Source: Laetmonice hystrix (Eukaryota). From it: DNA of 64,000 bases. A program made the translations under genes and the position numbers. Positions 26,301 through 64,000 of the stretch are shown piece after piece; position 1 is the first letter of the stretch; every line of letters begins with the position of its first letter. The stretch is taken from contig OZ249436.1 of the NCBI GenBank assembly GCA_965235115.1, positions 18,230,001 through 18,294,000 on the forward strand. Reading direction: 5' to 3'. The notes below the pieces were generated by a model. The model was not told where the DNA came from. It ran no database searches and saw only the letters and a list, made by a program, of their open reading frames with translations.

Positions 26301-27544
26301 TGCCTCACCCGACACCCGAGTCAGGTGGTCAAGAGTCTCAAGTCAACAACGGGTAGCACTCCCTTGCTCCCGGCGGGCGTGCACTGGTGGTTGGACGGGG
26401 CCAGACATGCCAATTTGGTCGATCGACAACGTAGTGAAAAATCTCTTACCGGGCGCTTAAACGAACAGAAATTCGTCGCAATACCCTCCAACGCATGAAA
26501 TGGTGGCTGAAAGCTATTATTTATACGGAGAATTGTCAACTAGAGAATGAAATGTACACTGGTTGGGTCATGGATGGAGTCTGACAGTAGTGACAGACTA
26601 CGGCAGTCTACGGCCGGGGACATGGCGTGCACTGCCACTGTCAAAGCGTCGGGCTACCGTTCAGCTAGCACACCCAGGCATATCTTCACGAAGGATCAGC
26701 ACCAAGTCAGCGGTGTGGTTAGACCTGCTGATCGGTCTCCTAGTACTATGACACGGATAATCTTACTCGCAGCTCTCAGTCTAGACTCTCTGACTACCTT
26801 GTATCCTCACCCGATCTGACAGCTGGTCGAAACTCGCGGCTCTGGCGACGTCACACTTCCGGGTGACCTGACTGTTTTTGATTGGCTGAATCAATCTCCC
26901 ATGTGATAATGTGATGTAAAATGGCGCCGAGTTCATTTCTCGGCTAGAGGTACGGTACTCGTAGTTTAAGGTTGGCATTCTCGTTTATGTAAAACCTATT
27001 GACCTGCATTTATTGCTGATGTTATTCTTTATTGTATAAGGCATATGGGAAGGTATAAGGTAGCTGGATTGTTGCATTTGGCTTTAAACATGTGTTCTCA
27101 GGAATTAAGAAAGTTTGCTCAGCTTGAGAATTTTCAAAAAACGCTCCGGAGTTGTTGAGAACGAGTTGAGTAAGTATGTTGAGCAAATTACTTAAGTAAA
27201 GCTTGAGAATCTTTGAAAAACTGGGCCATGGACTTATATTATGAAAATGATGCACGTGAGATTGCACGCCTTTAATTTAAAGACAAGGCCTTGAAATTCT
27301 GAATCTGTGTAGATATATGAGGATTAACATAAAACACTGGTGACATTTCAGCGATGAGGAATTTGCAATAAATGGACTGTCGCTGTCTGCCCACAAGGCC
27401 ATCACTCAACAGCTTATCAAGGATGGCTACAACCTGGATCTGGAACCAGATGATGAAGACTTGGATCTTATTCCCCCACGACCACTGAATGAACGCTCCT
27501 GCTACTGTTGCCAAGTGGCTACAGCATTATGCTGTATCCAATAA
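17345..27544 (+). CDS. FAM219A: FAM219 family protein, 5 exons, 173 aa, C-terminal CAAX-like CCIQ
   Basis: Exons 17345-17431, 23152-23230, 24610-24691, 25007-25087 and 27352-27544 join in frame. Motifs LQRKIERQRE, SRTRLVVP, SPDQQPLVMLETDDSDEEF, QLIKDGYNLDLEPDDEDLDLIPP and CYCCQ...CCIQ* match FAM219A/B. Confidence 0.93.
17884..18580. mobile_element. hAT-like element with 6-bp TSD
   Basis: TIR CAGGGGTCGAATTAC / GTAATTCGACCCCTG; CTGGTG on both flanks. Confidence 0.8.
20402..21180. mobile_element. hAT-like element with 6-bp TSD, containing a Harbinger-like MITE (about 20545-20723)
   Basis: ATGTAT|CAGGGCTGGAAAT ... ATTTCCAGGCCTG|ATGTAT. Confidence 0.75.
21305..22017. mobile_element. hAT-like element with subterminal (GGCAGTTTAA)n repeats
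   Basis: CAGGGTTGG ... CCAACTCTG ends; TATGACT on both flanks if the left end is taken at 21305. Confidence 0.65.
25525..27227. mobile_element. PIF/Harbinger-like non-autonomous element in FAM219 intron 4
   Basis: GGCCCGGTTTTTCAAAAATTCTCAAGC ... GCTTGAGAATCTTTGAAAAACTGGGCC; flanks CTG / ATG. Confidence 0.75.
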
Positions 27545-35595: not shown

Positions 35596-38350
35596 TATGA
35601 AGTGTAAAGAACTGACAACATTTGTTATGGTCAGCACGAACGTTATTTATAGAGCCGGTTCATCATTTTAAAGTACGCATTATAATTTATACAGCCAAAG
35701 AAAGATCATATAGCCAGGTTTGTTCAGATCATTCCACAGAGGCTTAAATGAAAATAAAAGAAAACTTGTAGCGTGTCCTTGCTCTTTCTCTAACCTTAGT
35801 GTCCACTGTTAAACATGTTTAACACTTCGTCCCCTACATTATATGCTATGGAAGCCCGTGTTATAGCCAGTAACTTGAAATTCAGTGGATCCTTACATAC
35901 AGCTTCAGTAAATAGTTCAAATTAAAAATAATCTTATGTTGTACATGCATTGAAAAGTGTATTTTGCAGAGAGTGTCAATCATTTATGTTCATATAGCCT
36001 ACATGTTCTATACAATGCCAGTAGAGCACATTATCCTAGAGTTCAAACTGTAGGCCTAACGCTCAGTGCACAAATGACTATGGTGATTGAAATACGATTT
36101 CTGTGTTTTCTTTATTTGGGATACATGTATCCCTGAAATAAAATGTGTTATTTGCTGTCATCATATTTGTGGTGCATTCCAAAATTGGTTTTGACATATC
36201 ATCAGTGTTTCTCTGCCGTTTGATCATCGGCTTGAAGAATCTCTCCACCTATTGTTGCAATTGTCTTTCGAGGATTTAACTACGTTATGGCATAACTGAC
36301 ACTACCGACTGTAAGCTAAGGTCCCTTCATCCGCCGGTGGCGACCGGGACTCACAACCGGTTTGCAACTATTTGGGGGGTCGGACATGACCTCAGGAGAT
36401 AATGCAAACGTAGGCCCCTACGTTTTCAGAGAAGTAACTTTTTCCTGTTAAAGGGATCGTCTCACCCACCAGATCGACCAGACTCTTCAGATTTATGCTC
36501 ACCTCCTCACCACTGACGTAATATCTGGCACTGAATCTTTTCATCCCACGACGGGGGCTTCTAATTTACCTGCATCACAGCCTGTAAATATCTATCTGCC
36601 TGTCAGTCCGTATGTAGCGCTATCTCAAAGACCAGACCTGCCAAAACTCCCACTTTGGCGGGAGAAGTCTCGAATTTGGGGGTTATTTGCCCTTTTCTCC
36701 CGATCTCCCGCCTGCATTCATTTGCAGAAAAGAAAAACAGTTGATGGTGCTCACATGTGACCTTTCTGTCGTTCTTTGGCCTATCTTTGCATTCCTCCCC
36801 CCCCCCCCCCCCCCCATGAATTATGGATAAGAATATTAATACTTGTATTTACAAGACGTTTATCTCCCGCTTGAGAGAACTTGTTCGTACTGATTCTGTT
36901 AACACAATGACATTCTATGAGTAGAGAGCTGTGAAATTATTGGTGAAAAAGTTATAAAAACTAGCCTGAGTGCACGCAAACAAAATGAATGCCGGCGTGT
37001 TGGCATATCGCCAATTGTTTGAACGTGTTGATGTGTAGAGCACATCTTCAATAACAGTCTGCAACCAATATAGTTCCAGAATTCGTTAAAAAGGAAATCC
37101 GTGATTTTCTCGAGAATAATTCCGACAATATTTGAAATTTCCAAATCGAACATCTATATTACGAATACGGACAGAAAAACTTTCAATTTGCACAGACCAT
37201 AATTTGATCCGAGATTTGGATCATATCGGAGAACCGCAATGCCAACATATCGTTTGTGAGACTGATTTTGTTGTGTCAGAAATAGTGAAATACATACTAC
37301 TTTTACTTAAGTCGGAGACTATACTTCATATGCAAAAAGATCTACCGGGGGTATATAAGTAAAGTTCTCCATGTGAAAGGGGCTTTAGACGGGGTTGAAA
37401 AAATATTCTAATTGGTTCAGTATATTTATATGTGAAAGGAGCTTTAGAGGGGTCTGTAAAAATATTCTAATTGGTTTAGTTGGTTTATCTATGGTTTATT
37501 GTACAGCAGTAGTCGTGTTTACAGATGAAACGCAGTGCGCAATGTAGCCAGTAGATTTTGCCAACCAATCCATAACAGTTTATTCTTGAGAATTAACACT
37601 CACGGATTTCAGAAAGTGAGGTTTTCTATCTTGAACCCCATCTGAAGTAAAACCATAACACACCAGCAAAATTCATTCTTCACTACGATTTTATAGTGAT
37701 AAGGGCGATAAATACGACTTGCGAATTAGGTCTGGCTGGTTTCAAGCAGGAAGTGAATCATGGCCCTTACTCAAATTGACTTGATATTTGCTTAGAATTC
37801 TGCTTTTATCTTTTAATGCAACTGAGGAACAAAAACCTATACAGTGCAGATATTTTATAATTCGAAATCAGCCGAAGGATGTTGGAGAGCGACCATGGTA
37901 ATCTTCGTCCGGATGCTCACTGTGCCATGTAACGCATGTCGTCAGCACTTCGGGTACTCGTGGCTAACTTCATGTTCCTACTACCGACCTTGGTCTCCGA
38001 GACCCATTCAGGGTGGATGATGAAATGACTCCGATACGGCTGCATGGAGTTCTGAAACGGAACAGGGTAGGCCTATATATTGTAGAATTTAAATGAGATA
38101 GTGCCTACCTACCCTAACATATCAAGGCCAGTGCTGATTCATCGATAGTTAACTTGGAAATCATCAATGTATGATATGCATGGGTTCTCAAGAAGTCGAA
38201 AACTATTCTAGGCAACGCAAGCATAGACCGTATGTGTGGTTCCTTTGTTTTGGCGTCGAATTTTTATATATCCCGATATGGTCTGATGGATGTAGGCTAC
38301 TGTATTTACGTCTCCCCACGTTTTGTTTTGCACGCTGTTTCTGACCGCTC

Positions 38351-39610: not shown

Positions 39611-39759
39611 ATACCCCACCACCGCAGATCCCACAACTGAGTTACATAACACTTCCACGCTCCACCAACAACCACCAACTCCTTTACCACAGCCAGCACA
39701 TCGCACACACACACCCACACCCCTACCCACATACATACATGTATACCTTATCGTCATCG

Positions 39760-40785
39760 GTATTTTCAGCTAGCAGTAACTTGGCAATAGAGCCAGATAG
39801 GCCCATAGTTACTATTGAAGAGAGATAGGAGTCATATATGGCCTTTAAAATGACACCATTTTTAATTAGGTCACGTGACCCTACGTGACTCTATGACGTC
39901 ATCAGTATTTTCAATTAGCAGTAACTTGGAAATAGAGCCAGATAGGCCCATAGTTACTATTGAAGACAGATAGGAAGTCATTATGGCCTTTAAAATGACA
40001 CAATTTTTAATTAGGTCACGTGACCCTATGTGACTCTATGACATCATCGGTATTTTCAATTAGCAATAACTTGGAAACAGAGCCAGATAGGCCCATAGTT
40101 ACTATTGTAGACAGATAGGAAGTCATATATGGCCTTTAAAATGACACCATTTTTAATTAGGTCACGTGACCCTACGTGACTCTATGACGTCATCAGTATT
40201 TTCAATTAGCAGTAACTTGGAAATAGAGCCAGATAGGCCCATAGTTACTATTGAAGACAGATAGGAAGTCATTATGGCCTTTAAAATGGCACAATTTTTA
40301 ATTAGGTCACGTGACCCTACGTGACTCTATGACATCATCGGTATTTTCAATTAGCAATAACTTGGAAACAGAGCCAGATAGGCCCATAGTTACTATTGTA
40401 GACAGATAGGAAGTCATATATGGCCTTTCAAATGACACCATTTTTAATTAGGTCACGTGACCATATATGGCTGTATGACGTCATCAGTGTTTTCAGCTGG
40501 CAGTAACTTTGAAAAAGAGCCAGATAGGCCCATACGTACTAGTGAAGACCCATAGGAAGTCATATATGGCCTTTCAAATGACACCATTTTTAGTTAGGTC
40601 ACGTGACCCTACGTTGCCCTATGACGTCATTGGTATTTTAAGATGGCTGTAACTTAGAAACAGAGCCAGATGGGTCCATGGTTCCTATTAAACTCATATG
40701 GAAAATCATATATGAGTTTTCAATTTACGTCAATTTAAATGCTGTCACGTGACCCCATCTGGCTTAATGACCCTTTTTAGGTAAT
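39760..40785. repeat. Tandem satellite, ~146-bp unit, ~7 copies
   Basis: Units start at 39774, 39919, 40064, 40210, 40355, 40501 and about 40647. Confidence 0.95.
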
Positions 40786-41720
40786 TTTCAACCAAAGATC
40801 AGTGATATCTCGAAAACGGTTAAAGATATCAATGTCTGGGTTTCACCTTTGGGTTTAGCATAAAAAACTTGACCCATCCTCAGCGAATTTTAAAAATCCA
40901 AGATGGCGGCCAAGTTGACCTAATTTCCAATTTCAGCACCATTGGATTGGGTAATAGGTCCACTATCTCTGACACCGAGATGGCTCCCCTAAATTCGATA
41001 GTTTCCATCTTATGGCCCCTCAAAGTTGGCCCTTTTAGGTTATTTTCAACCAAACATCAGTGATACCTCGAAAACGGTTAAAGATATCAATGTCTGGTTT
41101 TGACCATTGGGTTTGGGATGAAAACCTTGAGCCATTTTCCCTGAATTTGAAAAATCCAAGATGGCGGCCAAGTTGACCTAATTTCCGATTTTAACACCAT
41201 TGGATTGGGTAATAGGTCAGCTGTCTCTGACACCGAGATGGCTCCCCTAAAATCAATAGTTTCCAAGTTATGGCTCTTCAAAGTTGGCCCTTTTAGGTCA
41301 TTTTCAACCAAAAATCAGTGATATCTCTAAAACGGTTAAAGATATCAACGTCTGGTTTTCACCATTGGGGTTAGGATGGAAAACTTGACCCATTTAAACT
41401 GAATTTGAAAAATCCAAGATGGCGGCCAAGTTGACCTAATTTCCGATTTTAAAACCATTGGATTGGGTAATGGGTCAGCTGTCTCTGACACCGAGATGGC
41501 TCCCCTAAAATCAATAGTTTCCAAATTATGGCTCTTCAAAGTTGGCCCTTTTAGGTCATTTTCAACCCAAAATCAGTGATATCTCTAAAACGGTTAAAGA
41601 TATCAACGTCTGGTTTTCACCATTGGGGTTAGGATGGAAAACTTGACCCATTTGAACAGAATTTGAAAAATCCAAGATGGCGGCCAAGTTGACCTAATTT
41701 CCGATTTTAACACCATTGAC
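40785..41720. repeat. Tandem satellite, 258-bp unit, ~3.6 copies
   Basis: ttttcaacc...gtgatatct recurs at 40785, 41043, 41301 and 41559. Confidence 0.95.
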
Positions 41721-42503
41721 TGGTGAATGGGATACCTGTACCCTGGGCACCTCGCAACTAGTTAATCTTTTCTTTCGCATAGAAAATCTGCCATAGCTAT
41801 ATCATTGCTTTTGCAACACACTACTTTCATACTAATTAGTCCTCTCTCAAAAATTATATGATGTCATTACTTTAAAAAAGGGGAGACGTCCTGTTCGGAC
41901 TGAACAATTTCTAGTTTTCTTTTGAAATGCACGGGCATCAGGGGTAACCCAATTACTTTAACAATGTCCTTAAAGAGAAAAGTTGTATAGTCCTCTACAG
42001 GAATCGAACCCCGGCCCCAAGATTACTGCACCCATTGTAAGTAGGCCTACACTTGCATACTTCTATTCTCCACACACTATTCTAATTCATGAGATGGCTG
42101 ACCACGGGGCCTCTTTTCATTGACCTTGATATAAAACAGGGGCACAGATTTTTATGATGGCAAAGACCATCATTCGGTGATGGTTTTAGAGATGTAGTAA
42201 TTTAATATTTCACACCCACCATGAAGAACGAATTTTCATGGGTGTACTCAATGGGCGGCGGAGGCTGGTTCGTGTAAGTAGACTGGGGACGTGGCGTCGT
42301 GTATTTTGGTGTGTACCTGTATTCACTGGGCTGGATTCTGAAGGTAAAAAACAAACCCAGTTTAGGGTCTGATGCAGCGCAGCGGAACACGTACATGTAC
42401 ATGGGTGTCAGTAACTGTTGTTGAAGGTTTATTCCAGAGATTTTCACTGGAAAGGGGATGAGAACCCCGTAAGTTTGTGAATCCCCATTGGTCTTTCACT
42501 TAA

Positions 42504-43254: not shown

Positions 43255-44900
43255 CATTAACCAACTCACTCCATGCGGTACCAATTGACCGTCCTTTTTC
43301 GCCAAGAAAATAACCAACTCACTCCATGCGGTACCGATTGACCATCATTATGCGCTACGAAAGTAACCAACTCATTAATACGGTACGAATTGACCGTCCT
43401 TACACGCCAAGAAAGTAACCAACTCACTCTATGCGGTACATTGTACCAATTGACCGTCCTAACACGCCAAGAAAGTAACCAACTCACTCCATGCGGTACC
43501 AATTGACCGTGCTAAAGCTGCTTTCACATGCGTGCGGCGTGCGGCATGCGTTTTTGTTAATAATGTAGCTAATGTAAATCGCCGCAAACCGCAAACTGGG
43601 GGCATGTGAACGGTTATATCTATTTTGAGTTGTTTCATTTCTGCGAAAACGCACGCCGCACGCCGCAAACCGTGTGAATGTGAAAGCGGCTTTACACGCC
43701 AAGAAAGTAACCAACTCACTCCATGCGGTACCAATTGACCATCCTTACACGCCAAGAAAGTAACCGACTCACTCCATGCGGTATCAATTGACCGTCCTTA
43801 CGCCAAGAAAGTAACCAACTCACTCCATGCGGTACCAATTGACCATCCTATACACGCCAAGAAAGTAACCGACTCACTCCATGCGGTACCAATTGACCAT
43901 CCTTGCACACCAAGAAAGTAACCAACTCACTCCATGCGGTACCAATTGACCGTCCTTACACGCCAAGAAAGTAACCGACTCACTCCATGCGGTATCAATT
44001 GACCGTCCTTACGCCAAGAAAGTAACCAACTCATTCCATGTGGTACAAATTGACCATCCTTACACGCCAAGTAAGTAACCAACTCATTCCATGCGGTACC
44101 AATTGACCATCCTTACTTGCCAAGAAAGTAACCGACTCACTCCAGGCGGTATCAATTGACCGTCCTTACGCCAAGAAAGTAACCAACTCACTCCATGCGG
44201 TACCAATTGACCATCCTATACACGCCAAGAAAGTAACCGACTCACTCCATGCGGTACCAATTGACCATCCTTGCACACCAAGAAAGTAACCAACTCACTC
44301 CATGCGGTACCAATTGACCGTCCTTACACGCCAAGTAAGTAACCAACTCACTCCATGTGGTACAAATTGACCGTCCTTACACGCCAAGTAAGTAACCAAC
44401 TCATTTCATGTGGTACCATTTGACCGTCCTTACACGCTACGAAAGTAACCAACTCACTCCATGCGGTACCAATTGACCATCCTTACACGCCAAGAAAGTA
44501 ACCAACTCACTCCATGCGGTACCAATTGACCATCCTTACTTGCCAAGAAAGTAACCAACTCACTCCATGCGGTACCAATTGACCATCCTTACACGCCAAG
44601 AAAGTAACCAACTCACTCCATGCGGTACCAATTGACCATCCTTACTTGCCAAGAAAGTAACCAACTCACTCCATGCGGTACCAATTGACCATCCTTACAC
44701 GCCAAGAAAGTAACCAACTCACTCCATGCGGTACCAATTGACCATCCTTACACGCCAAGAAAGTAACCGACTCACTCCATGCGGTACCAATTGACCATCC
44801 TTATGAAAGTAAACAACTCACTCTATACGGTACCGATTGACCATCCTTACACGCTATGAAAGTAACCAACTCACTCTATACGGTACCGATTGACCATACT
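43255..44900. repeat. Minisatellite, 53-bp unit, roughly 27-28 copies, interrupted by a MITE
   Basis: Unit CCAAGAAAGTAACCAACTCACTCCATGCGGTACCAATTGACCATCCTTACACG. Confidence 0.97.
43516..43690. mobile_element. Harbinger-like MITE inserted in the minisatellite
   Basis: TAA|AGCTGCTTTCACATG ... ATGTGAAAGCGGCT|TTA; same family as 35138-35317. Confidence 0.85.
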
Positions 44901-46165
44901 TGGGGTGATCCCGTAGAGAGACGGATCGCTGTAATAAAGAATATGGTTCTGTTACAATACGCAGCGTTGGCCATTCAACACGAACATTTCAGCTTAGAGT
45001 AGATCAAAATTAATGTAGGTCGACCTAAGTGAACGAAATACTATAATGGTACAATAATAATAACGTTAGAAAAGATTTTAAAGAAAGGTCCTAGAAAGCA
45101 TTCAGATGCGACTTGCCATAATCCCGCCATTGTCGACGCTTCGAAATATTCTGCTGTCTGCAAGACTGCTTCTGGAAGGCCAATGATGCATTCATGGCGC
45201 AGGGTCACCTTGCCAACCGATGTGAAATCACCCTTGGCTCTTTTTGTTAGGTAATACCAACTCCAAGTCGGGTCTGCACAGCTCTGAATAATTGATGCCT
45301 AATTAATTAGTAGGAACGAAGTGGAGACCATATAGTTTATCCTTGAATAGACTAGGTATACGGTAGGCCTATACTTTATCTTAAGATAGGCCCTATTCCA
45401 CATTTTTCCACTGTCTGTTTCTGGAGAGTAACTAAGTCATTGGCAGGACGCCATTTCTAATGAGAAGATTACGTGAGGAAGAATCGTAACTGACTGGTGG
45501 GAGACGGAAGTAGTTGCAAACCTTTGAATGTGGTTGGAGCAGATTATAGTCTATTTCATTTCAAACATATTTCGTCACACTCGATCTGAATGTTTATAAC
45601 GTATTATAAGAGGGCTGAATCGAATGTAAGAATCTCTCATTGAAGATGTACATTATATTGAAATTATCATTGTCCAGTAGGAAGGGTGGCTATAGCTCCC
45701 CCAGCCCCCTGGTCCCCACAGCCTTGTGATATTTATCGGTCGTTGACCTGCAGTCTGCAGTCGGCTCTACCTCGACAGATGGCAGATCATGTCTCGGCCG
45801 TAATCGTCGGGTCGCCATTTTTGAAAGTAGTACACAACAAAACAAACCCATGTGGTTTCCACAACTGGCATCTTGGCCTTTGTCGCTATAAAAATATTCT
45901 CGTGGGTGTTTACGGAAGGAATCTGCCGACAGTGATCAGAGTTATGTGAAACACTCATCAACCGCTGCCATTACGCTGTAGGGATTACTTGGTCAGCGCG
46001 CATTGTGCCCCCCTGCCTGCTTACTCAGTATTCATTCGCGCCGCATCACAAAGTCACACAAATCTGTCCATTACACCCGAGGTGAAAATCCCAACCCACC
46101 GGAAGGTGGCGGACTTTCCCGAGGGTTCCCGAATGCTGCAGTCTGATGAGGCAGATCGAGACCAG

Positions 46166-46690
46166 GGCCCGGTTTTTTGTTTACTTTGCCACCGTGAGCA
46201 AGGGTGAGCTGAGCTGAGCAAGGGTGAGCATGAGCTCATTCTCAACGTTTTCATGTTTTTTGGGTTGCCTTTTTCCATGAGGCGTGCTCATGGTGAGCAA
46301 GCCCGCGGAAAAACACCCGAAAAACGAAAACAGTGAGCAAAACGGTGAGCATGAGCTTCTGGGGCCGGTTTTTTTGTTTACTTTTCCACCGTGAGCAAGC
46401 GTGAGCTGAGCTGCGCAAGGGTGAGCAGAAGCTCATGCTCACCGTTTTGCTCACTGTTTTCGTTTTTTGGGATGTTTTTCCGCGAGCTTGCTCACCATGA
46501 GCACGCCTCATGGAAAAAAGCAACCCCAAAATACACGAAAACGGTGAGAATGAAGTCATGCTCACCCTTGCTCAGCTCAGCTCACCCTTGCTCACGGTGG
46601 AAAAGTAAACAAAAAAACCGGGCCCTGATGACCCTTGCTCAGCTCAGCTCACCCTTGCTCACGGTGGAAAAGTAAACAAAAAAATCGGAG
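46166..46690. mobile_element. Harbinger-like MITE with a second copy of itself (46362-46624) inserted in reverse orientation
   Basis: GGCCCGGTTTTTTGTTTAC TIRs; inner copy flanked by CTG at 46359-46361 and 46625-46627. Confidence 0.8.
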
Positions 46691-49600
46691 CATGCACGGT
46701 GCACACTACACGATTTTCAGTCGCCGATAACTTGAGACTGACAGTTGGGTAGTAGGGCTAGGCCTATGCATGCAACTGGCGACTATAGTTACGACGAGTT
46801 TCGAGTCAGCGACCGGGAGTCGTACATAATTCAAAAAATGATTCGGGCCCAACAATTAACTGTCGTTTAGTGTGCGCCACTTTTAAGATCGTAGTTGTCA
46901 ATGTTCGCGCGTTGGTAATACTTGGTAGGCCTACAATCACAGCGCAGGTTTTTTGTCACGTGACATAGCCTCCACCAATGTGGCGGAGGGAATCATAATT
47001 CTTATGAGGCTTACCATTTTAGCCCTGTCACCAAAAAAAAAACTGCGTCACCGCACCACTTTTGAAATGTTCTTCGGACCAGAAACCGGGGATTTCTTTT
47101 TTTTTGCCTTACCATCACGTCGGGGATTTTATAGGAGAAAAACATTAAGTGTCTCGGTATGCCATTGCGACCTTCTTAATCAAAAATAAAAATCGTATTT
47201 CTTTCTGCACTAAATGTAGGCCCATAAGGAACGTCTAGATTAATTATGAAAACACATCAGCAATAAATCAATAAATAGACCTAGGTCTACCACGTGCGAT
47301 TATAACAGTTCGTATCATTTACTTAGAAAGCTTTCAAGCAATATCGTGAACAAAATATTGTTTCTCTCTGTCCCCTCCACGCCCTTTTTACCCTCTATGT
47401 CGTCCGAAAGGAAACGGCTTTTGATACTAGATAGCGCATCCTTGTTGAGGCACGACCAGCATAATTTATGTATATTCCAAAGCAGGTCAAATGCGGAGTC
47501 TCAGTTAGAGCGACTGGGATTGGTGCATTGTAATTATTTCTGGGCTGGTCAAACATAGTAAAATAGGGGTCCGTTTCTGTCAACTGCGCTTATACTTTCT
47601 TTTCTGACCTTTAACATTGTGTTGTATGGACCTGCCGACATTTTAATAACCCCATCATCCACCTCCAGCAGGGCCTACATTTTAACGCGTTTCGGACATA
47701 GATCTATACTATGCCTTCCCGGATATTTGCCCGTATTTCGGCGCCGGCAACAGAACGAAGCGGAATGGCTTCCATTAGGAAATAATCGATAAGCGTGCGC
47801 GCTGCGTTTCATATCTAGGCCATCGCCAGCGCGGATCGTGGAGCCTGGCGCGGATGAGGACGAAGCTAGTCTGTATGATAGCTATATAGGGGCATCACGG
47901 ACAACTTGTTGTGGGGGAGCGAGCTGAGGGGGAAATGAATGCATTTACATTGGTGGTTAGCAGTGGTATACAAACAGCTGCTCACTAGGGCATGGTGATC
48001 GTATGTAACGGCGTTAGACGGACTGTGCGTGTGGCCGAACGGGTGTCGGACAAGTCTCACAGGGATAGGGCGTCTCGTAGACCGCGCCTGGTGAGTATAC
48101 AAAGCATTCATCATATCATTATTATAAATGCCTGGCTTGTTGGCTCTTTCATGTATATTATTGTCCATGGAAGCACACGTCATGTCGTGACGAAAGTACT
48201 GAAGTGATATAAGAAGCGTGCGGCGTTCACAAGATGGAAAGTGGTTGGACCTTGAAGAAATCGTGGGACAAACTGCACCAGCGACATTGTCAGTGGGGCT
48301 GGTACATGTATGAGTATGGGGTGACATTCTGGTAGTAGGCTATGGGCCTTGGGGCTCTGTTAAAACATCTAGACCCCCTAGACCTAATATCTGAGTGAAT
48401 TAGGAAACCCGGCCACTGGACCGTCTTAAACCCTTCCACTCTTGATTCGCCTCCATGGCCCGAAGACTTGCGTATTGAACGGTCAAGTCAGTGGCGCTCC
48501 CTAACACAGGAGCGATGCAATGCTACATTAGGCCTATACTGACGACAGAAATATGGCGAAAACCTCCCAGATATGTCCAGAACGACCATTCCAGCCGTAT
48601 ACTGGCCACTGTTCCCACATTGTAGAATGTCTGTCAGTGTCAGCGTTGTAGGAAGAGCATGCAGGAGCGCCGCCATAGAAAAGACGCCCTATTGTACCTA
48701 CCAGACTCCCGGTCCATTATGCGCAGACATGAACGTAGTATACCTTGCTGACTCGGTTCCGTATACTGCCGAGTCAAACGGGCATAATAGATTCAGATTT
48801 AGTATAGGGAAGCACCCTTAGGACTATACATGGGTAGATTGCATTAGACATAGAGTACAGGTCTATAGTATAAGTTGAATGAAAGAAACATGCACTGCTG
48901 TCACAGTAGGACTACTTGTGTCAGTATTATTAGCATAGATCTACTGCCTGTGCACTATACCTGTGCGTTTAGTTTGTCTGACAACAATTTCAGAGACGCA
49001 TCAAATCTAATGATGGTCAACAGAAATTGGTACGGGGGGGGGGGGACGCAGATAACGAGATTTCGAGCAAACATGACTACGGTCTATTCTGTCTGAACAC
49101 AGCTTAGGTTAACAACAGCGATGTCCAATGGTTGACAGCCGTTGGGTTTCCATGCATGCACTCGCGCGACGGATGACCTATTTTTTTCTGATGATCGCGT
49201 GTGTAGACGCCACGGCGTCAATGACGCTGAACCTTTGCTTCGAACCGCCCGTGACCCACATAGTGACATGCCGAAAATAACTAATGGATTGCCAAATTAC
49301 TGTGGCGCCATTTCAAGGTCATTCTGTAGCTTCATCGTCCAATGCAATAGTTATTGAAGAGAGTGGAAATCGCGGGACACATTGCTGTATAATGTGACAG
49401 AAAGTGTTACCTGATAGAAATTCCCATTTCCATAAACTACTCAGTGGCTTGGTGATTTCGCAGTTTTTGTGATCCACGCCACGACGAAAAATCGTAGCGT
49501 GTATCACCCGCTTTAAAAGATTCATTGGTCATGTATATCAAATTCATTCTTATCATTAATTAAAATTGGAGTAGCTGCCCTACCTGTAATAAATTGTATT

Positions 49601-50324
49601 TACAACCTTTTTACAGTGAAAAGGTGTACCTCCATGGCCAGGACTATAATAGCCTGACATATTTACACTATAGGCCTATACCCTGTCGGGGCATGCGTTC
49701 GTACTTTATGTGATGCGGCAAGTCCCGTGTATTTATTATAGTATCAGTCCAGTAATAAATTCTACTTTCATGAATGCATTTTATTTTAAAGTGTAAATCA
49801 TGTATAAGATATTTATCTGCGAGGTACTGGTGCGAGTGCATCTGTTTGTATCTCACCTGTATATAAAGACTGCCGCCACACCTACACCCGATGGCCCCAT
49901 GAAACCATGCATAATTCATGACTTCCAGAGAACGTCATCTTTTTATAACCGTAACCCAGACGGTCTAGATAAAAGATCACAGGATGCACCAGACTCAGAC
50001 AGGCTCAGGAATCGGTCGATTCACGGCCGTATCGTATTCTAGCAGTTGGAATAGGGGTTGAGGATAATTATCTTCTATCAAATAAGAATGACATATTAAT
50101 GCAAAATAGTTAAAAATCAATTGGATTTCCCTTTTGGATATTTCGGTAAGAGGCATTTTGCCCAAAGCAGATAATCAAGCCCCCTTCCACTCCCTTCCCT
50201 TTCCTTCCCTTCCCTTCCCCTCCCATCCCTCTAACTCTCGTTCATAGCTGCATTTCTATAGGGAGAACTGGCCATCTGACAATTAAGCTGGCGGTAATCA
50301 TGTTATCTTTGATTACTTTAACAG

Positions 50325-50655
50325 GTTGCCGCAGCAAACGGTTTGGGTGACGCCCACAGCCATATTCGACATGTCGATGAAGAAGAAGAAATCCGAAGGC
50401 AAGCCTCCGACATCACAAAATAGCCCGCAAAAGTCCAAATCACGTAAAGATGAGTCGCGCAAGTATAACTTCGATGGCGCCTTTTTCTCCTCAATCCGCT
50501 CCCCCAAACGGCAGTACTTTACCATTCACCCCGAGTGGGTGTCAGAGTCAGTGTCGCAGATGACGCTACAGGAGAAGACACAAACGTATCCACCACGCAG
50601 GTGCAAAAGTGCGCCTCCTCCAAGGACCCGTAACCCAATCACCTGGGAGTATTAA
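50325..50655 (+). CDS. Uncharacterised basic small protein / terminal exon A (NFDGAFFS...YFTIHPEWVSE...RCKSAPPPRTRNPITWEY*)
   Basis: Acceptor tactttaacag|G; open frame to TAA; protein motifs are conserved with the paralogous segment at 51098-51383 despite diverged DNA. Confidence 0.75.
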
Positions 50656-51097
50656 GCGTTCCTATATGCCTTCGTCATCATCGACCTGCCAATCACCAAT
50701 CAGTTTACGTGCTTCCCTTTGGTTCAGCGTGCCTCGCGTTTTACATGTCCACAAACTGTTTGCGGTTCAATTAGTTGCTTTTTCATCTTGGCTGTATCTG
50801 AAATACTGCTTTTGGCATATTTTGTGAATACAGATATTTTTTTCCGAGTTTACACATGCTTTAATGCAGTGTTTCTTATTCTCGAACATATCATGCTGCG
50901 CTAATCTCTGTCATTTGGAGTGTTGCCGGTGCGTGTGTAAATGGTGGCATGCGAGATCTAGAATGCTGAAAACCAAATGGTGTGTGTGCAAGTTTATCAT
51001 CCAACTTTATCACTTACGCCTGAATGGCTTTCCGTAATAAGACTCAGGTGTCCTGTAAGTCCTATACTTACTACGTATGTCGATTCTTCCTGAACAG

Positions 51098-51383
51098 GTT
51101 GTCGCAGCCGAATCTGAGACCCGTTCAAGCCTCTACGACCAGCGCGCAACCACCGGATAAAACAAAGACCGGGTCTAAAGTCAACTTCGATGGTAGCTTT
51201 TTCTCCGGCGTGGGCACGCCAAGGAAGGAGTATTTCACTGTGCACCCTGAGTGGGTATCAGAAAGCTTTAATGGCGGTCGGCAAAGGCCTCACCAACGGA
51301 CTAACACATTTGAGAATATCTTTGGTAGGCGCTCCAGGAGTGCACCGCCACTACGAAGTAGAAACCCAATCACATGGGACTGA
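51098..51383 (+). CDS. Uncharacterised basic small protein / terminal exon B (NFDGSFFS...YFTVHPEWVSE...RSRSAPPLRSRNPITWD*)
   Basis: Acceptor ttcctgaacag|G in the same phase as exon A; paralogous motifs. The frame is also open back to an ATG at 51024. Confidence 0.75.
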
Positions 51384-54300
51384 CGTAAATTCATTCCTGT
51401 CGTCGCTATTATCATAATATTATCTAGTCTTTCGAAGCGTGGCCCCTGAAAGCCCAGTCTCTTTCTTCCAAATCTAATTTATTTGGCAACTTGAACTCGA
51501 CACCTGGATATGTTTTTGAATATATGACATCATGAAGGACCGACACTTTGAACTTTCAATATAACACTGAAAAATTCATATCTCATTTGATAAGTATAAA
51601 AAAAAAAGTTTATCGTTTCGTGTGACCCTACACACGCACACATGCGCGCTCGTCTTGCGTGGCGTAATAATTATAATGTAATTGTAACGACGGCTTTAAT
51701 GTAATATTTCGTGTTTTCCATGGCGATTTTTAAAAACCTTTGCATATCTGGTGCGTCTACTGGAGATAAAACGGCAGATAATCTGTTATTTATAATCGCC
51801 CTGTCAAGCAACATTAAATACACCTTAATACAAGATGGAATATCGACACAGGGTTTTTGTAGAGTTAATCCCATAGTGTTAACCGCCATTGATTGCTTGA
51901 ATTCCCACACTAAGGGACAAAGGATGTATCCTAAATGCTGATACAAGGTGTCTATGTAAGCTTAAAGTCTTGTAGCCAACCAGAGGTAAATGGTGGACCG
52001 CCACGATGTCTGGAATCAGTGAATGTTACATGTAGGCCTGCCGAGATGTTGTTTATGTCACCACAGACAGAACGTGATTGCATTGAACAGATATATAACT
52101 GCAGCAAATTTAGCACTGAGACGTGAACCTGTAAATCTAGATGATGTAAACAAACGCTCGGTCCACGTGACCTGTGTCATCAGGGCAGCAGCTTGACCTC
52201 TCCACGACGTTGGATTCGGCAGGTCGTAGGCCTTACGTTTGATATTCTGCGAAACTACATATGCAATGAAAACACTTGCAGCTTCTGCTAACTCGGCGTA
52301 TAGCGAGTGGAGCTTCTCATTTCGCCTGTCAGTGTTCGCTTGTACGTTGTGGTCAGAGCGGCGTTTCGATGAAGAATCCGTCGTCTCAACGGTCGGGTGC
52401 ATGTCTTGGTATCCGCTGGACACCAGCCTTTACGTTATATAACAGACAACTGTCTTACTCTTCAGGGATAACGATCGAGAGAAACAAAAACTGCCACACT
52501 GAAGCAATGATCACGGTCTCGTTCAAGAAGGGAACAGCTCTGTGAGTTTTCGTAATATAGTATGCCGGGTTTAAAGACAAAGACTGGGATCTGTGGTCAG
52601 AATAGGGACATAGCAAACAACGGTGATCGAGTAGCAGCAAGTCGGCACGACTCTTTCTGGTTAACTTACCCATAACCGTTTGTTCTAAATCATATATGAA
52701 ATACATTCGAGTGTCTGAGGGGCTTTGCTTCACTATACTTACTCTCTATGGTGGTTTTACTGCAACGGTCTACTTTGAATCGACGTCTGAAATAACGCTA
52801 TTTTGTTTACGTTGAACTCGTCAGTCACGGAGAACGAGATCTCGTACTAATTTTGGTAGCGAAAGTTGTGGATAACGCCAATTTTAATTAGAGTTACTGA
52901 AATTCAACAGGCTGTAGGTCTCATGATATCGTAAAAACAACCGAAATCAGCGTGTGATCTTGTGGGAAAATGCGTTACCTTGATGAATAATATTGGTGAG
53001 TCAAAACGGATAAAAATAGAAGGAAGTTACAAAAAAAAAGAGTACTGTGAACCTGCCACTACTCGGGTCGTGGTTGGGTTTAAAACTAAGGCGACTAACC
53101 CAGTCTGGCGACGAAAAAAAGTCAGATGGGGTAACTAGTGTAACTAGTCTTGGTTAGTGACGGCAGTCTGAAAATACTTTCGTTTGCGTTGAAGCCTTAA
53201 GCGTGGCTGTTGATGTTTCTTCTATATTGAGACCTTCCAGAGATCACAGGGATACTATTGGATTGAGTGTTATGTTGATTGGATTGCTACATGAGTAATG
53301 TGTACATGCATGTGTAAATACCTGAAGCCTTCTTCGATGTGTGGAATACATTGTATAGAAAAACGCATTCAGGAATGCAGCATAATTATATGTTTCTCCC
53401 ACGCTAGATACTCAGAATATACGGACAAGAAATAGCTTGCAAGCTGCATTGAGGTATCATTTTGTATTTAGCAAAGAAAGAATATTAAATATTGTATAAA
53501 AAAAGAATATAATTTGTTTGAGACATTCTTTTTTGAACCATCTAAATCGGAAATTTCTATTAAATTTGTAAGATTTATTTACCCCAAAATATATAACATG
53601 TAGTAGGGGGCCGTACAAGCTTGATGCATGTGTCAAAAAGGAAATAAGTCGCATTTTAAGAAGAATGATTTCACTGTCATTTTGTACCCATTAGGGCATG
53701 GTCCATCTTACGTTGGTGTTTCGTTTATTGAATAAATGACAGAGTAGTGTCGTTTCACGATTACGTCTATGCTATATATCAGCCTTCCTACAATAGTTAT
53801 TTCCTTTGGACATTTGAGTGGTGTAAGAAACATGCATGGGGATCTCACAGGCCTTCCCCTATATCTTTATCAGTAGCGTACCCAGGGGGTAGCCTACGTA
53901 GTAAGCCTCAGCCAGTGAGGCTTACGACCACTCAATGTTAAAAATTGGTGCGTCAGTGGCAGCGCAAATTCATGTATCGATCAACTCACCGGCATCCATT
54001 TATCAGAGGCAACGTCTTCTTTTAGTTGTTTGACAAGTATTTTAAGGATAAAACATCAAATTCCGAAGTGTCGTACAGCTGCGGCTTCCGTGGCCTGTTT
54101 ATTTCCCAGTATGCATCTCTCTGACCTAGCAAGGTCCCCTGCTCTACTTATGTCGTAACATAGCGGACGCGTCTGTTAGGCAGGGTGCAGGCTACTCCCT
54201 GACCCGGGAGGTCAAAATGGCCGCGATAGGCAGAGAGCGAAATTCGTCGATTCCAGACTTTGTGCTGCCCTTATTATGTGCCGTCGTGCTTTCCGATGAT

Positions 54301-55192
54301 GATTTGACCGGACACACCAGGAACTTGCACTACGTGGCGTCCGTCTCTGTATACGGTAGTACACCAGAGACGGATACTCTGTCTAACCCAGGGGGGTGCT
54401 TGGGGTGCTCAAGCACCCCCCTCAATTTACCTCCCACTACCACCTTGCTTTAGGCCTACGTGTCCGTTAGAGCCTAAATATTTGGTCAGTTAAGTTCAGT
54501 AGCTGATCCAACCCACAAAGAATTTGTAGTTTCTAGTCCATGTTCTACCTAATTGGCACCATTGAAGACACCCCGTGGATTTTTAGTTGGATTCATTATG
54601 AAGCCATATGACGGCAACGGTTCAGTGATAGCACCATCACCGACCACCACCAGACTTTTTGGTTCACAAGATCCTACCTGCGCGCGAACTGTGAACATTC
54701 TGGTTGAAAGTCCACACCGAAACCTACTGAGCTAACTCGGATTTCTTTTGTACTGGCCTGGAAATTGGTAGCCTTTTCCCTTAGGTTGCTATCTATAAAA
54801 ACCCTTCACTCTGCTCGGGCCTTTTAGACACCCCTCGGCCGAGCTTTGTTTGAAAATTTAAATTGGAAATTTTGACCGTGATGAATGACGTTACAACAAC
54901 ACGCTGCTTGGGCCACTTTTCTCAACACTGGCAAAGGTTCTCATTACCGTATCCCTACATTATTAATGACAAGATAATTCTGAAGACCTTTAAATTTCTT
55001 CTCAAATAGCATTTTTCTAATAGGACATGAACTGTAGTATAGCCAGCGATCTTTATAGACTGTAGTATTATAGTGCTCTCGACCAGTGGCGACCGTCCTA
55101 CGCGTCGATCATGACTGGGGAGACACCAGAGAGCGCAGGCTGTGGCAGTAGCTCATTGGGTGATGTGTAAAGTAGTTTCCAGTGTAACTTAA

Positions 55193-55709
55193 AGGTAATC
55201 GATCACCCTACAGCCGCCGAGTTTTGTCCCCATCTCCTACGAATCCGCGTATTTCAAGCTTAGAGTCTACCTGATCTTGAATCTATCCCACTGGACTGAT
55301 AAAACATTCTGTCGTATCCATAACATTGCTGTGCTCGGTCTCTTGTTGATTATGAGCCATAATGAGGCGATACATCTCTATTTTTCATCTCAATGGACTG
55401 AGAACCGAGAACGACCGCCATGACCGCCTTAGCATTGTTCGGGCTGTTGTTACTAAGCAACGGGATTGGGCGTATGCGTTGCCTCGCACTGCTCCATCCG
55501 TCCTTCCCCCATAATCCAAATAAGGGCATGATTTGATTCGCGTGCTCTCATCTCTAGCCAAATAGGTAAACGCTTAATTAATTAATTAAAAATATTGTCG
55601 ATATGGACGCGCCATGGTACCAGACTGCTAGAAACCCCTTAAAATAATTGTTTTTACTCAAGTTTTGTTGAATTGACTGCATTTATTTCATTTTTCGGAC
55701 AGATTTCCT
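55193..55709 (+). mobile_element. Intact ~517-bp TTAA-flanked Kolobok-like non-autonomous element
   Basis: TTAA|AGGTAATC ... GATTTCCT|TTAA; homologous to the split copy at 19665-23010. Confidence 0.85.
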
Positions 55710-55964
55710 TTAACCAAAAAAAGTTGATGATGTCATAAGGGACAAACTTATGAAATCAGGGTTGAGGAGTACAGCCAGTTGAGTATAGATATCTACGGGG
55801 AAAGCCATCTTTGATACATCAACGTAGGCCTAATGTTTAATTGGAACTGCCAGCATTCACCTCATCCCAGCTGAGTTAAAATGTGGATTTCGGCACATAG
55901 CGTCAAAGTTTTTAATAAATGAAATTATTTATATTTGTTAACAATAACATGTCTCTTGGGGCCA

Positions 55965-56387
55965 TGTCGTAGTTATCAAATATGCCACTAGGTGGCTGCG
56001 AGCATAGCCTAACGGACCACTCGGCGCACCGTTCGACTAACTGACGTCATGTCTCGGGTGTACGATGAAGGTCAACATGCACGCTCACATTCGCGCCCAT
56101 TTTCTGAAATGAACGCTCACATATCCTGCCACTCGGAACGACCGACGCTGCTTCTGATTGGCTGTTTCTAGGTCATATCCGGGGCGAAGCAGGCCTCGGA
56201 CAGTGAAAGTGTACAGATTTTACGTGGATTTAACGGGAATCCGCCGGATAGGCCATGTGCTCTCTGATCTGCTCTCGGTCTTGAGTTCAGAGGCAGACTC
56301 AGTCGCTCTGAGCTGCCAATAAACCTTCGTCAACATTTATCCTGGAGTGAAACTTGCTCTCAACCCTTTGTTAGAGCCATCACGACA
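55965..56387 (+). mobile_element. Probable solo LTR
   Basis: TGTCGT ... ACGACA termini and AATAAA at about 56318; no clear TSD and no PBS. Confidence 0.45.
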
Positions 56388-56669: not shown

Positions 56670-59600
56670 TCAGCTTCCCTCTTCGTTGAAGATCTTTGGA
56701 TGTTTGTCCCAGCACTTCCGCTGTCCATCACATTTGGTGTATATAAACCCACAGTTGTTCGACATCCTAGGCCGACAACGGTACTGCACCACAAGCTCGT
56801 GCGAGTGTCCGTTCATTTCGTTCGTCGTCACCTTCAGCCGAGTTCTCTTGTCCGCTTTTAGATGCTTGACATCTTCTGCCTCGAGTTCAACTTCGTGAGT
56901 GTGGACGCCGACATCGGGTAGGGCTGAGGGAGCCATCATCAGGAAGAGTTTGGTCTCTCTGCCCCCCTGTCCGGACGTGACGTTCTCCCTGAACATGTGC
57001 CAGTATCTGGTTGGCTCCAACACGATATCCTTCAGTGCTTCCAGTTCCTTCCAGGCGGCGCTGCCCTCACCATAAATAGGCATGATGGGATAGCGCAGGC
57101 GAATCCTACCACTGATGCCAAGTATTTCAGGAAGAAAGATGCGAGGACCAGATGCTGTGACGTTTCTGCGGGCGTTGTTGCTGTCCAGGACCTGGACGAC
57201 GGCCCGACTGCCTGTGTCTGCCGCGTCCCGTTCCGACCGGCCCTTGGCGAAGAATTCGGCGGGCGTCCTGAAGTAAACCCGGCTGTTGGAGCCATTGAAT
57301 GCGGTAGACAGCCCTGCAGTACCGTCGCGGCCACCTTCCGTCACAGTTCGGCCTAGTGTGGACTTCGCCTCCCCCTTGTACGTGATATTGTACGGATTCC
57401 AGTTGAAGAGGGGCGTCATGTATATTATCTCCAGAGGTACGGCGTAAGTCCATCGCTGCTCTACCGAAGAGCAGACTCGTCTTTTGCATCTCTGGTGCCG
57501 TAGCGGCGCGATCTGCGGTTGGGATGTCATTGCCATGAAGATGGAGTCGTCTGAATACCCGCGCTGACGTAGCTGGGACCCCATGGCGCCCCTCCTCTTG
57601 ACCCGGAAATACCGGTGGTAGTACCCCGCGTTGATTGGGCCGCTCTGATCGACTTTGTACGCTGGCTCGCCAAACAGGTCGTCTGTGAGGTCGGCCCTAT
57701 AGTTGTCCTTGCCCGGGACCTGCTCCATGAGTTTGTCAAGTAGACCTCTTCTGCTGGTGCCCTCCGTGTAACGGCTCCTATCCTGCAGATTCAGCTGGAA
57801 CCTCGCAGCCCGGGACTTGGCATGCTCGGCAAGCGTCCGTCCATAAGCCATCCTCGATTTGACGTCATCGACCAGACGAAGCCGGTCTAGAGGCAAGTCG
57901 CCTTTAAGTGGGTGGCACATTATCCTGTAGTTCCACTGGGCCATGACAGGAACTCCATTAGTTATGTTTGTTATGCCAGTGGGGAGATATGCATAGTTCT
58001 CATTGTTGTCCTTGCGGCCAGAATAAGAAGTGAACCGAATGTTCTCTTGCAGTTCAAACCATGTCTGAGCATCGAGAAAATGGCGGTCACTATCAAATGA
58101 CTCGTCCAGTGAGTCCGTGGACGTCGTCCACCCGCCCTCAAGGTAACACAGTACTGGTTTGAAATACGGTTTATAATTTCGCGTCGAAGAGTCCTGATTC
58201 TGCCAAGCTTTGAACCACTGCCGCATCTCTATAATCTGTTCCTGGACGGAACGTTTCCGGTGTACCGCCGGTGGGACAGCGGGGAAGGGGATAAATTCGT
58301 CCGCGTTGTACTCCCGGGACGACCGACTTGGTCTCCTCAGCTGGTAATCGTTGTGGCGGGTGCGAAACTCGACGCCGTTAAGGACAGCGGAGAATTCTCC
58401 CATTCCTAACGTCCGAATATTGTTGGCGTGGTCGTGAATGGACGCCAGGCTGCTGCTGGCGTGGGACGGCGAGTGATACGGCCGACTGCCGTCATTGCTC
58501 ACCCGGACTTGTTTCAGGCCCGAGTGTCCATCGGAACGAGCCTGCTCCTCTCTGTACAGCTGTTGTTGAAGCAGCTGTCGTGACAGCTGCTCAATCACGG
58601 CTATCTGATTTTGGCAGAACCCCGCTGTCGCGAAGAGCAAGAAGATCAATCCAAATATCCTGCGAGAACAAAGAATTTTAATGATATTAGGCGACAAAAC
58701 TATTTCAAAGACAGCATGAAAAGCAGGAAAAGGGGCCGTTATTATTGGTAATCGCACAGTTTATAGACCTACTGTCATTTTGATCAGACTGAAGTCCTAC
58801 AATGACTTGGATAGGCCTATAGCTGAGCCAATCGAGAATTTCCACTAAGAATATAGCCTACCTGGCATTTTAAAGAGACAAACCGTAAATCGAAACAAAA
58901 TGGGCAACTATTGGCCATTGTTATAGAACGAGTCTTATTGTATAGTTAAACAAAATATAATTTTCGCGCGCTTGTGTTTGATACTAAATACTACTAACTA
59001 AAGCCACTCAGGCTGGATCACACATAGCCGACCAGCCGACCAATGGTTTCAGCCGACGCTGCACCCGTCGATGCACAGAAAATCTCAGCGGGCAAAAACT
59101 ACTCAAATATTCGTCAATCTGAGTAGTTTTGCCTACTCAATCTGAGTACCTCAAAAGGAGTAGTTTTGGGTACTCAAATCTTCCTGTCTGACGAAGGAAA
59201 ACTCGTCAATTCGTCAAAAATTCGTCAGAAACTCGTCATCATTTGTAAAGGTGTTATAATTTCTTTTCTTTTCTGAACCAAGAGAACGCAGTCCAGTACT
59301 CTAAAGGGGGACTTCTATACCTGAAACAGAGGGCGTCATTTTCATGGATTACGTGTAAATACAAAGGAATTAAGCAAAATCAACTTTGAAGAAAAAAAAG
59401 AAATACAAAACATGTCTTTTTCAGATAGATTTTAATGTAGGCCTATTACAAAGGTCACATTCATTCAGTATCCAGTCACGATACCCACGAACGTAACTGA
59501 TAAGAAGTGAAATGGCCATGATGTTGTCTGGCCATTAATTTTCTTGGACGAATAAACCTTTCGTCTCAAGCCACGACAGGCCTCCCAGCCCATTCAAAGC

Positions 59601-62696: not shown

Positions 62697-63722
62697 TCAA
62701 TTTAAAAGTGTTCTTTTTCCGCTCTGCGTAAGCAGGTCGTTCCGCATCCACAACACGATGTTGGGCCACATGTGGCAGTTGGCCATTTCAAGTTCCGGGA
62801 TCTGATTAACATGACGCAGAGCAACGGGCAGTGAGTAAGGGCGATATCTCCTTCCTCGCAAGAAAGCAAACATCCTTCGTACCAACTGCTCATCGGGAGA
62901 AGGATTGGTTCCGTTTCCGGGGCACAGGTGCGTGCTATGTGCCATACAAACGACCGGTATAGAAACTGCATCGAACAGCTTGTGTGCTTTCACAAACGCT
63001 CTTGTGACGTAGGCCCCAATGTCTATCCTGAGAATAGCGCCCTGAGATTTTATCACACCAAGAAGATCGTCCATGAGAACCGCTTTAGCAGAATCGCAGA
63101 CCTTAAGCCTACATATATTAAAATGCTGGAAAGGTGAGTTAGAGTCGTCCATCAAGACGATTGTGTCCATGACAACGTCCGCGCGACGCTCCGAGATCAG
63201 GTTGTTGACGACAGTGATGCTGCCCTCAGTTCCCGCCAAAATGGCGGCCTTCTGGAGTCTCCATATATGACTGATGACGGGCTCCACAGCGATAACCCGG
63301 TGCCCGTTGGCTGCCATGAACAAACTGTTGTGGCCAATGTACGCACCGATATCAACAAAGGTACTGTTCACAAATTTCTCCATGCAGGACTTGAGGAAGA
63401 GTGTCTGCCCAAGGTGTTTACTCATGTACTTGTCAAGCTTCGGTTCCACGGGCATAATAGCGGTGTCCCTGTACGTACAGATAGGTGTGGTGGGTGACAT
63501 TATGTCCGCTATGCAAGTTATATTGATGCTGTCCGGCAGAGAGCCACTCATATTGTACACGATCAATGGACTGAAGGTGGATAATTTTGGACAACTAGCT
63601 GTCTTTTCTTCCAGAGGAGCACGACGCCAGAATCTGGGCGGGCCGAGGGTAACTATCATCAGGAACGGCACGTACAGAATCAAAGTCACCAAGGACAGCC
63701 TCTCCCAATGGTTTTCCAACAT
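62697..63722 (-). CDS. FkbM-family (Methyltransf_21) SAM-dependent methyltransferase-like protein, type II membrane anchor, intronless CDS
   Basis: N-terminal hydrophobic anchor LSLVTLILYVPFLMIVTL; motifs FVDIGAYIGHNSL, RVIAVEP, ILRIDIG. ATG at 63722 follows a splice acceptor at 63731 (the ORF track start at 63728 is a GTG). Confidence 0.82.
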   Translation of the reverse strand: MLENHWERLSLVTLILYVPFLMIVTLGPPRFWRRAPLEEKTASCPKLSTFSPLIVYNMSGSLPDSINITCIADIMSPTTPICTYRDTAIMPVEPKLDKYMSKHLGQTLFLKSCMEKFVNSTFVDIGAYIGHNSLFMAANGHRVIAVEPVISHIWRLQKAAILAGTEGSITVVNNLISERRADVVMDTIVLMDDSNSPFQHFNICRLKVCDSAKAVLMDDLLGVIKSQGAILRIDIGAYVTRAFVKAHKLFDAVSIPVVCMAHSTHLCPGNGTNPSPDEQLVRRMFAFLRGRRYRPYSLPVALRHVNQIPELEMANCHMWPNIVLWMRNDLLTQSGKRTLLN

Positions 63723-64000
63723 GGCCACCTCTGGAAATAGAGATCACAGATAAAGTAACAGTTGAGATACACCCCCCTATATCAGAATGTTCAATGGTTG
63801 CCACATTAGCAACCACGATGGTGCAAATAGTTAGTCTGAGAAGAAAAAGAACCCACCGTATCTTCCTCAAAACTGTCAAACGGAGACAACACACAAGGAA
63901 CCTGCACCTTTGGCCAACAGATGACAACGCTGGCCGAGGTGTAGGGCCGGGCCTATACTCGTTGGTAAATTTCCACTCTTGCAGTATTCAATTGTAACCT

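Follow-up and report, generated by a model that had tools for sequence, protein, structure and literature searches.

The locus carries two homologous coding segments, termed here exons A and B, in tandem on the forward strand of the window, by which we mean the whole 64-kb stretch of DNA analysed (Table 1). The acceptor AGs are located at 50323-24 for A and at 51096-97 for B, the exon starts are 773 nt apart and both are in phase 2, and the 17-mers at the two acceptors differ at 2 positions; a search for this 17-mer elsewhere in the 64-kb window, on either strand and with up to 3 mismatches allowed, gave no further copy. The stop of A (TAA, 50653-55) comes two codons past RNPITW and that of B (TGA, 51381-83) one codon past it, and the spacer between the exons is 442 nt long. 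A first-pass annotation of this DNA had reported near-identical acceptors of the same phase about 770 bp apart, with stops shortly after RNPITW, and both observations hold. The two peptides are identical at 40 of 85 residues (47%, E 2e-24 in a single comparison).

Table 1. Coordinates of the features discussed in the text (positions of the window).
Feature	Positions	Strand	Remarks
Frame with FAM219A C-terminus	27344..27544	+	Pfam PF15260, E 7.4e-18; synteny marker for SMRP1
Four-exon RIIa-domain gene	30825-35595	+	Weak PDB match, exon 2, E 0.021
Last exon of opposite-strand gene	37917..38051	-	Second half of motif 1; tblastn; probable SMRP1/SPMIP6 relative
Penultimate exon of opposite-strand gene	42220..42337	-	Ends with first half of motif 1; phase 0 junction
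Candidate first coding exon	47992..48090	+	33 codons, phase-0 end; top plus-strand candidate in 35.7-50.3 kb
Exon A	50325..50655	+	109 codons behind a phase-2 acceptor, closed by TAA; internal Met at 50371
Motif 1 in A (F-x7-YF-x-x-HPEWVSE)	50461..50550	+	Matches SMRP1/SPMIP6 C-terminal motif
Motif 2 in A (RRCKSAPP...RNPITW)	50596..50646	+	Characteristic of spiralian family
Exon B	51098..51383	+	94 codons behind a phase-2 acceptor, closed by TGA; Met-free from acceptor to domain
Motif 1 in B	51177..51266	+	Same motif as in A
Motif 2 in B	51327..51377	+	Ser in place of Cys, like the downstream copy in locus L004

The rest of the window contains a complex inverted-repeat element at 46165-46688, MITE- or foldback-like, with arms of up to 110 nt that are about 90% complementary, tandem repeat arrays at about 39740-41720 and 43270-44900, in introns or the upstream region of the minus-strand gene, and high-copy interspersed repeats, recognised by contig depth, at about 52630-53250, 53860-54470, 55090-56000 and 46800-47100. 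Two intronless frames are present on the minus strand, one of 696 codons (56670-58760) with a hydrophobic N-terminus and no Pfam match above cut-off, and one of 348 codons (62697-63743) that is membrane-anchored and methyltransferase-like (Pfam TehB, E 1.3e-4).

A and B are anciently duplicated, intact, homologous copies under purifying selection. Over 61 domain codons aligned by way of the proteins, on which the estimates are conditioned, pS is 0.76, which is saturated, and pN is 0.30; the resulting pN/pS is 0.40 (bootstrap 0.27-0.55), none of 2000 resamples reaches 1, and identity by codon position is 66, 70 and 41%. These values agree with the purifying selection and diverged third positions claimed by the first-pass annotation, and they supply the dN/dS comparison that it had proposed. 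Contigs from three DNA-like runs extend through both copies without a break (49489-52675 in X1 and X3), and the depth over A and B is that of the unique flanks, although the three runs come from one sample, possibly the assembly's own source, and are not independent of the assembly. Since contigs span both copies and their depth equals that of the unique flanks, the pair is neither a repeat nor a transposon, and the divergence of the copies argues against an assembly echo. The closest relatives of A are the proteins P0002 and P0111, and that of B is P0045, 68% identical from the acceptor onward. Both of the ATGs pointed out earlier, at 50371 inside A and at 51024 upstream of B, are present, but the second is unlikely to be the start of B, because the similarity of P0045 begins 3 residues ahead of the acceptor-encoded part and the first 22 residues from this ATG stay unaligned.

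The motifs of both exons recur in a protein family. The oyster protein CGI_10018120, which Wu et al. 2020 include among 37 uncharacterised 'spiralian-specific' genes (PMC7441323, Supplementary Data 1), carries the same C-terminal motifs as A and B, and a profile built from 20 full-length members gives 78.5 bits for A and 62.6 bits for B. With A as query all six short candidates were matched, plus 70 cluster representatives at E up to 0.001, and profile searches for longer proteins yielded 20 of 8000 scored candidates and then 6 of 625. The named relatives are from annelids (Paralvinella KAK2164438.1, Capitella ELU15331.1, Owenia CAH1797522.1), nemerteans, Lingula (XP_013378675.1) and molluscs, with the best named matches in annelids. 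Every named match having both motifs together comes from an annelid, mollusc, nemertean or brachiopod (26 looked up), and motif 1 by itself is seen as well in the jellyfish protein P0028 (E 0.66) and in bovine SMRP1. Judged by these likenesses, the gene holding A and B is related to the spiralian-specific CGI_10018120 family and the two exons are homologues of its C-terminal domain, full membership being unproven without the N-terminal motif. The first-pass annotation had called the family unnamed; it does have no Pfam model, but its oyster member is already in print as a spiralian-specific gene (PMC7441323). No Pfam match above the curated cut-off was obtained for A, B, 15 family or motif proteins or 41 aligned members, and the matches seen were all sub-threshold (e.g. 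DUF3408, E 0.03).

Full-length members are mostly 250-350 residues long and consist of an N-terminal helix motif, with the consensus D-x-E-Y-x-Y-I-M-x-K-A-L-x-S-Y, and the C-terminal domain. AlphaFold predicts a confident helix for the N-terminal motif of a family protein and disorder for the remainder, and gives no fold for exon A (pTM 0.19), each of the two models being of low confidence as a whole. The C-terminal domain is present as a single copy in the named molluscan, nemertean, brachiopod, Owenia and Capitella proteins and as two tandem copies in one metagenome contig (L004) and one Paralvinella gene model (P0010). A tree built on 48 rows and 75 columns groups A and B with annelid and unnamed rows; the Owenia, nemertean, brachiopod and mollusc rows fall outside this group, whose branch is weak (70/89). 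Since the best named matches are annelid as well, the window likely comes from an annelid. The B copy of the window pairs with P0045 (99/99) and not with that of L004, and a single B clade forced on the tree is not rejected (p-AU 0.31); either one old duplication or repeated duplications may fit this tree. A variant of the motif is also found at the end of CGI_10010915, a second gene of the spiralian-specific list (PMC7441323, Supplementary Data 1), and the protein P0081 holds two copies; given these two cases, the motif may be a wider module.

Motif 1 provides a plausible link between this family and a microtubule inner protein of sperm. Bovine SMRP1/SPMIP6 is the top PDB match of a profile made from the first eight sequences (E 0.058) and the sole match, among 177,635 PDB sequences at E up to 10, of a 30-column motif profile built from nine window and locus stretches (E 0.0018). 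Furthermore, a profile of P0027, P0029 and the jellyfish P0028, which are relatives of the minus-strand gene in Table 1, matches SMRP1 at two collinear places (E 0.015), making it the same chain on top in three profiles. The full-length family profile A2 gave no PDB match at E up to 10, and neither did the minus-strand-gene profile after P0028 was dropped (A6). SMRP1 repeats every 16 nm inside sperm doublets, where it packs against Tektin-4, and knockout mice are reported to be fertile (bioRxiv 10.1101/2022.09.29.510157); it is listed among the Mn-repeat inner proteins (PMC10973386) and among mouse sperm doublet proteins (PMC10663601). The main texts that were searched contained no mention of CGI_10018120, CGI_10010915, the Capitella identifiers or the motif strings, and at that level the link appears to be unpublished so far.

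By virtue of this common motif both tails would be predicted to act at ciliary or sperm-tail microtubules, a role for which we see about even odds. The ciliary or microtubule function that the first-pass annotation had guessed at gains modest support from the SMRP1 motif match and from the neighbourhood, but two profiles are without SMRP1. A match of this kind could arise by chance or reflect a generic short linear motif, the choice between the two exons being right and the protein unrelated to cilia. The modest E-values (0.058, 0.015 and 0.0018) and the two profiles without a match fit such an origin, but SMRP1 tops three profiles and alone answers the motif-only one, and both an SMRP1-like gene and FAM219A are found less than 25 kb away. 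Expression data on the spiralian-specific list point both ways: 18 of the 20 genes tested in Tritia are ubiquitous and 2 mark ciliary bands (PMC7441323), but ten list genes are seen in oyster ciliary clusters (PMC10396302). In the Atlas the Owenia protein is nearest to the CIMIP4/TEX33 clusters, at 0.81 and 0.79, which is under the 0.9 bar and counts as a lead only, also in keeping with an unrelated protein; no usable match was obtained there for A and no structural match for the Owenia protein. We thus rate a protein unrelated to cilia as a serious possibility that falls somewhat short of even. Piovani et al. 2023 place eight further list genes in oyster ciliary clusters, four of them newly named (PMC10396302), and a name and ciliary expression record for the CGI_10018120 family could already exist in the supplement of that paper.

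A third copy of motif 1 is found by tblastn on the minus strand, 12 kb from A and B and split over two exons; the 5' exons of this SMRP1-like gene were not found. Its relatives P0027, P0029 and P0028 have the motif in common with the A/B family at a profile-profile probability of 97%, a value which is not independent, since all three were found with the A profile. A RIIa-domain gene, which we take to resemble RIIAD1, sits between FAM219A and the SMRP1-like gene, and RIIAD1 is linked to cilia. The end of FAM219A is about 10 kb from the SMRP1-like gene, its likely small exons starting from about 23150, and the Pfam scan of neighbouring frames matched 1 of 41 frames. In the horse, C9orf24 and FAM219A are 3 kb apart (table in PMC8515666). 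The SMRP1 profile match, together with a linkage to FAM219A as in the horse, makes the minus-strand gene a plausible SMRP1 orthologue and a better candidate than the A/B gene itself. The A/B gene points away from it, 8-12 kb off, and from this single locus we infer that the spiralian gene may have been born by local inverted duplication. A fuller scenario would make HPE[WF]VSE an undescribed axonemal binding module of SPMIP6 and of a spiralian gene born by inverted local duplication and still standing head to head with it, annelids having then duplicated the tail exon and switched between its versions, for example in sperm flagellum versus ciliary band. We consider that scenario, taken as a whole, doubtful.

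As to the use of the two copies, the best-supported reading is that A and B are alternative last exons of one gene, to which we assign a probability of about 0.6. In this reading, drawn from DNA alone, a shared upstream exon likely picks acceptor A or acceptor B, its phase-2 donor being joined to either of them, and the outcome would be two proteins with different disordered tails. The A message might simply hold B in its 3' UTR, since no AATAAA or ATTAAA is present between the stop of A and B; variants of the signal occur at 50827 and 51036 and the first ATTAAA at 51813. Both tails would keep the two short motifs and differ in the linker, in the Cys of motif 2 and in the stretch after HPEWVSE, differences that would tune binding with the fold unchanged. 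One argument comes from B, which has no internal Met before the motif and thus needs an upstream coding exon with a phase-2 donor. B-type exons that are conserved from the acceptor and lack a Met ahead of the motif are found in the B copies of the window and of L004 and in P0045, P0050, P0056 and P0108. Alternative terminal exons had also been the proposal of the first-pass annotation, which stands as the best-supported one, but the searches of the window yielded no shared upstream exon, and the term 'mutually exclusive' has to be given up because 3' exons of this type are properly called tandem duplicated exon substitution (PMC9741552).

Several searches for the upstream part of the gene were made in the window. 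The N-terminal helix motif, sought in six frames of the 64 kb, reached 7.7 bits at best, versus at least 34 for the 41 best of 44 family matches, and may have been lost, have diverged or lie beyond the 64 kb; a profile of the middle region of the family had no match in the window, tblastn with 15 longer relatives placed no upstream plus-strand exon, and no shared upstream coding exon with a compatible donor was found in the window. The segment at 47992-48090 is likely a coding first exon, with a donor ranking 9 of 3754 and 3 of its 4 listed allelic differences synonymous (P about 0.06), its membership in the A/B gene being unproven. As it ends in phase 0 it cannot be spliced directly in frame to A or B, and an exon scan, for which two long ORFs of the window served as training set, gave no convincing middle exon going from phase 0 to phase 2 (best score 0.6); the same scan missed RIIAD1-like exons in a control range, so its misses are weak evidence. 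Nor was an RNA-pairing switch detected beyond shuffled sequences: around A in the window, 14 of 20 shuffles paired equally well, and upstream in L004, 18 of 20 did so; an intron-spacer pair in L004 is marginal (2 of 20), and no common RNA docking site for both acceptors was found.

A scan of metagenomes provided seven comparison loci, kept from 69 pattern matches, among which L004 alone exceeds 7 kb. In L004 an A-like copy is followed about 750 nt downstream by a B-like copy, each with a phase-2 acceptor and its own stop, and an upstream Met-bearing exon has a phase-2 donor (score 2.75) compatible with both acceptors. The other six loci, three of them near-identical, show one copy; only L002, L005 and L006 among them have longer flanks (2.2-3.2 kb downstream), and no second copy follows within 2.2 kb in L002 or 3.2 kb in L006. 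The N-terminal helix motif is absent from all seven. In L004 (8523-8959) and in L001 (1210-1651) the A-like exon is interrupted just ahead of the domain by an additional phase-2 intron, so that a Met-bearing exon remains whose phase-2 donor is good (2.75 and 4.17, respectively), while A in the window is unsplit and has a weak GT at the matching position (50463). In L002, at 1046-1053, an acceptor AG is directly followed by a donor-like GTAAG just ahead of the Met of the domain exon.

The same loci bear on the possibility of two tandem small genes, with translation of A starting at its internal Met, downstream of a non-coding first exon, and with a private first exon for B in the 442-nt spacer. 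An in-frame stop lies ahead of the internal Met in L002, L003 and L004, and certain copies may therefore be short coding units that stand on their own, but the window and L001 have an open frame starting at the acceptor, and the 15 residues ahead of Met 50371 in A resemble the equivalent stretch in relatives. That no in-phase upstream coding exon was found fits two genes, a non-coding exon could make use of the donor at 50146 (score 3.4) and of a TATA-like element at about 49861, and candidates combining an ATG with a phase-2 donor are present in the spacers of both the window, where the Met-bearing donors are at 50929 and 50980, and L004 (scores 1.8-3.0). These spacer candidates, however, look like intron sequence, and a promoter and first exon would need to fit into the 3' UTR of A in the window and in L004 alike. 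Two separate genes are, on balance, unlikely.

We regard as more improbable still a single protein with two tandem domains, in which A would be spliced to B via a donor just ahead of its own stop. A GT at 50649 is in phase 2 and matches B, and the same GA|GTA is found in L004 and L001, but this GT is a by-product of coding Glu-Tyr or Glu-stop, and the three donors all score below -2 with nothing in common at +4 to +6. Indeed, the candidate donors for an in-frame junction of A with B are weak, both in the window (50649, -5.1; 50463, -1.55) and at the A end of L004 (-2.3) and L001 (-5.3). The Paralvinella model P0010 does have two domains in one protein, but it is a hypothetical gene model. Finally, a dead duplicate, transposon piece or assembly artefact, which would account for the 5' part of the gene missing from the 64-kb window, is very improbable in view of two open frames, a pN/pS of 0.40 at saturated pS, a close relative elsewhere for each copy, single-copy depth and one contig spanning both.

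Duplicated last exons are a known design, and the alternative-exon reading is by itself of modest novelty. The main value of the locus lies in the fact that a gene for which the literature gives no detectable relative beyond Spiralia has a motif in common with a solved microtubule inner protein of sperm, and that the same spiralian gene adjoins a probable invertebrate orthologue of SMRP1. If true, this would give a traceable origin to one lineage-specific gene and define a new short ciliary motif, and A and B would offer a natural pair of tail variants for testing cell-type-specific cilia.

In comparison with known systems, lophotrochin and trochin are on the same spiralian-specific list, and the ciliary-band expression is theirs (PMC7441323). 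Their Capitella accessions, ELU14756.1 and ELT92671.1, differ from that of the CGI_10018120 family, ELU15331.1, which rules out that the A/B family is lophotrochin or trochin; DUF4476, the lophotrochin domain, has no match in the 15 family or motif proteins or the 41 aligned members. The likeness to SMRP1/SPMIP6 (C9orf24; PDB 8otz and 9fqr) is a 27-residue C-terminal motif ending in HPE[FW]VSE, whereas the match is confined to its residues 271-297 and motif 2 is not matched in SMRP1. With the CGI_10018120 family A and B have in common the C-terminal HP[ED]WVSE followed by RRCxSAPP and RNPITW, but the N-terminal helix motif of the family is not found in the window, and its proteins have one domain each, except for the Paralvinella model, whereas the domain is duplicated here. 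Human tandem duplicated exon events swap the C-terminus in 77 of 236 cases (PMC9741552); the pair in the window is read from genomic DNA, but it resembles this C-terminal tandem duplicated exon substitution in having homologous tandem terminal exons that are old, are under purifying selection and would encode a disordered tail.
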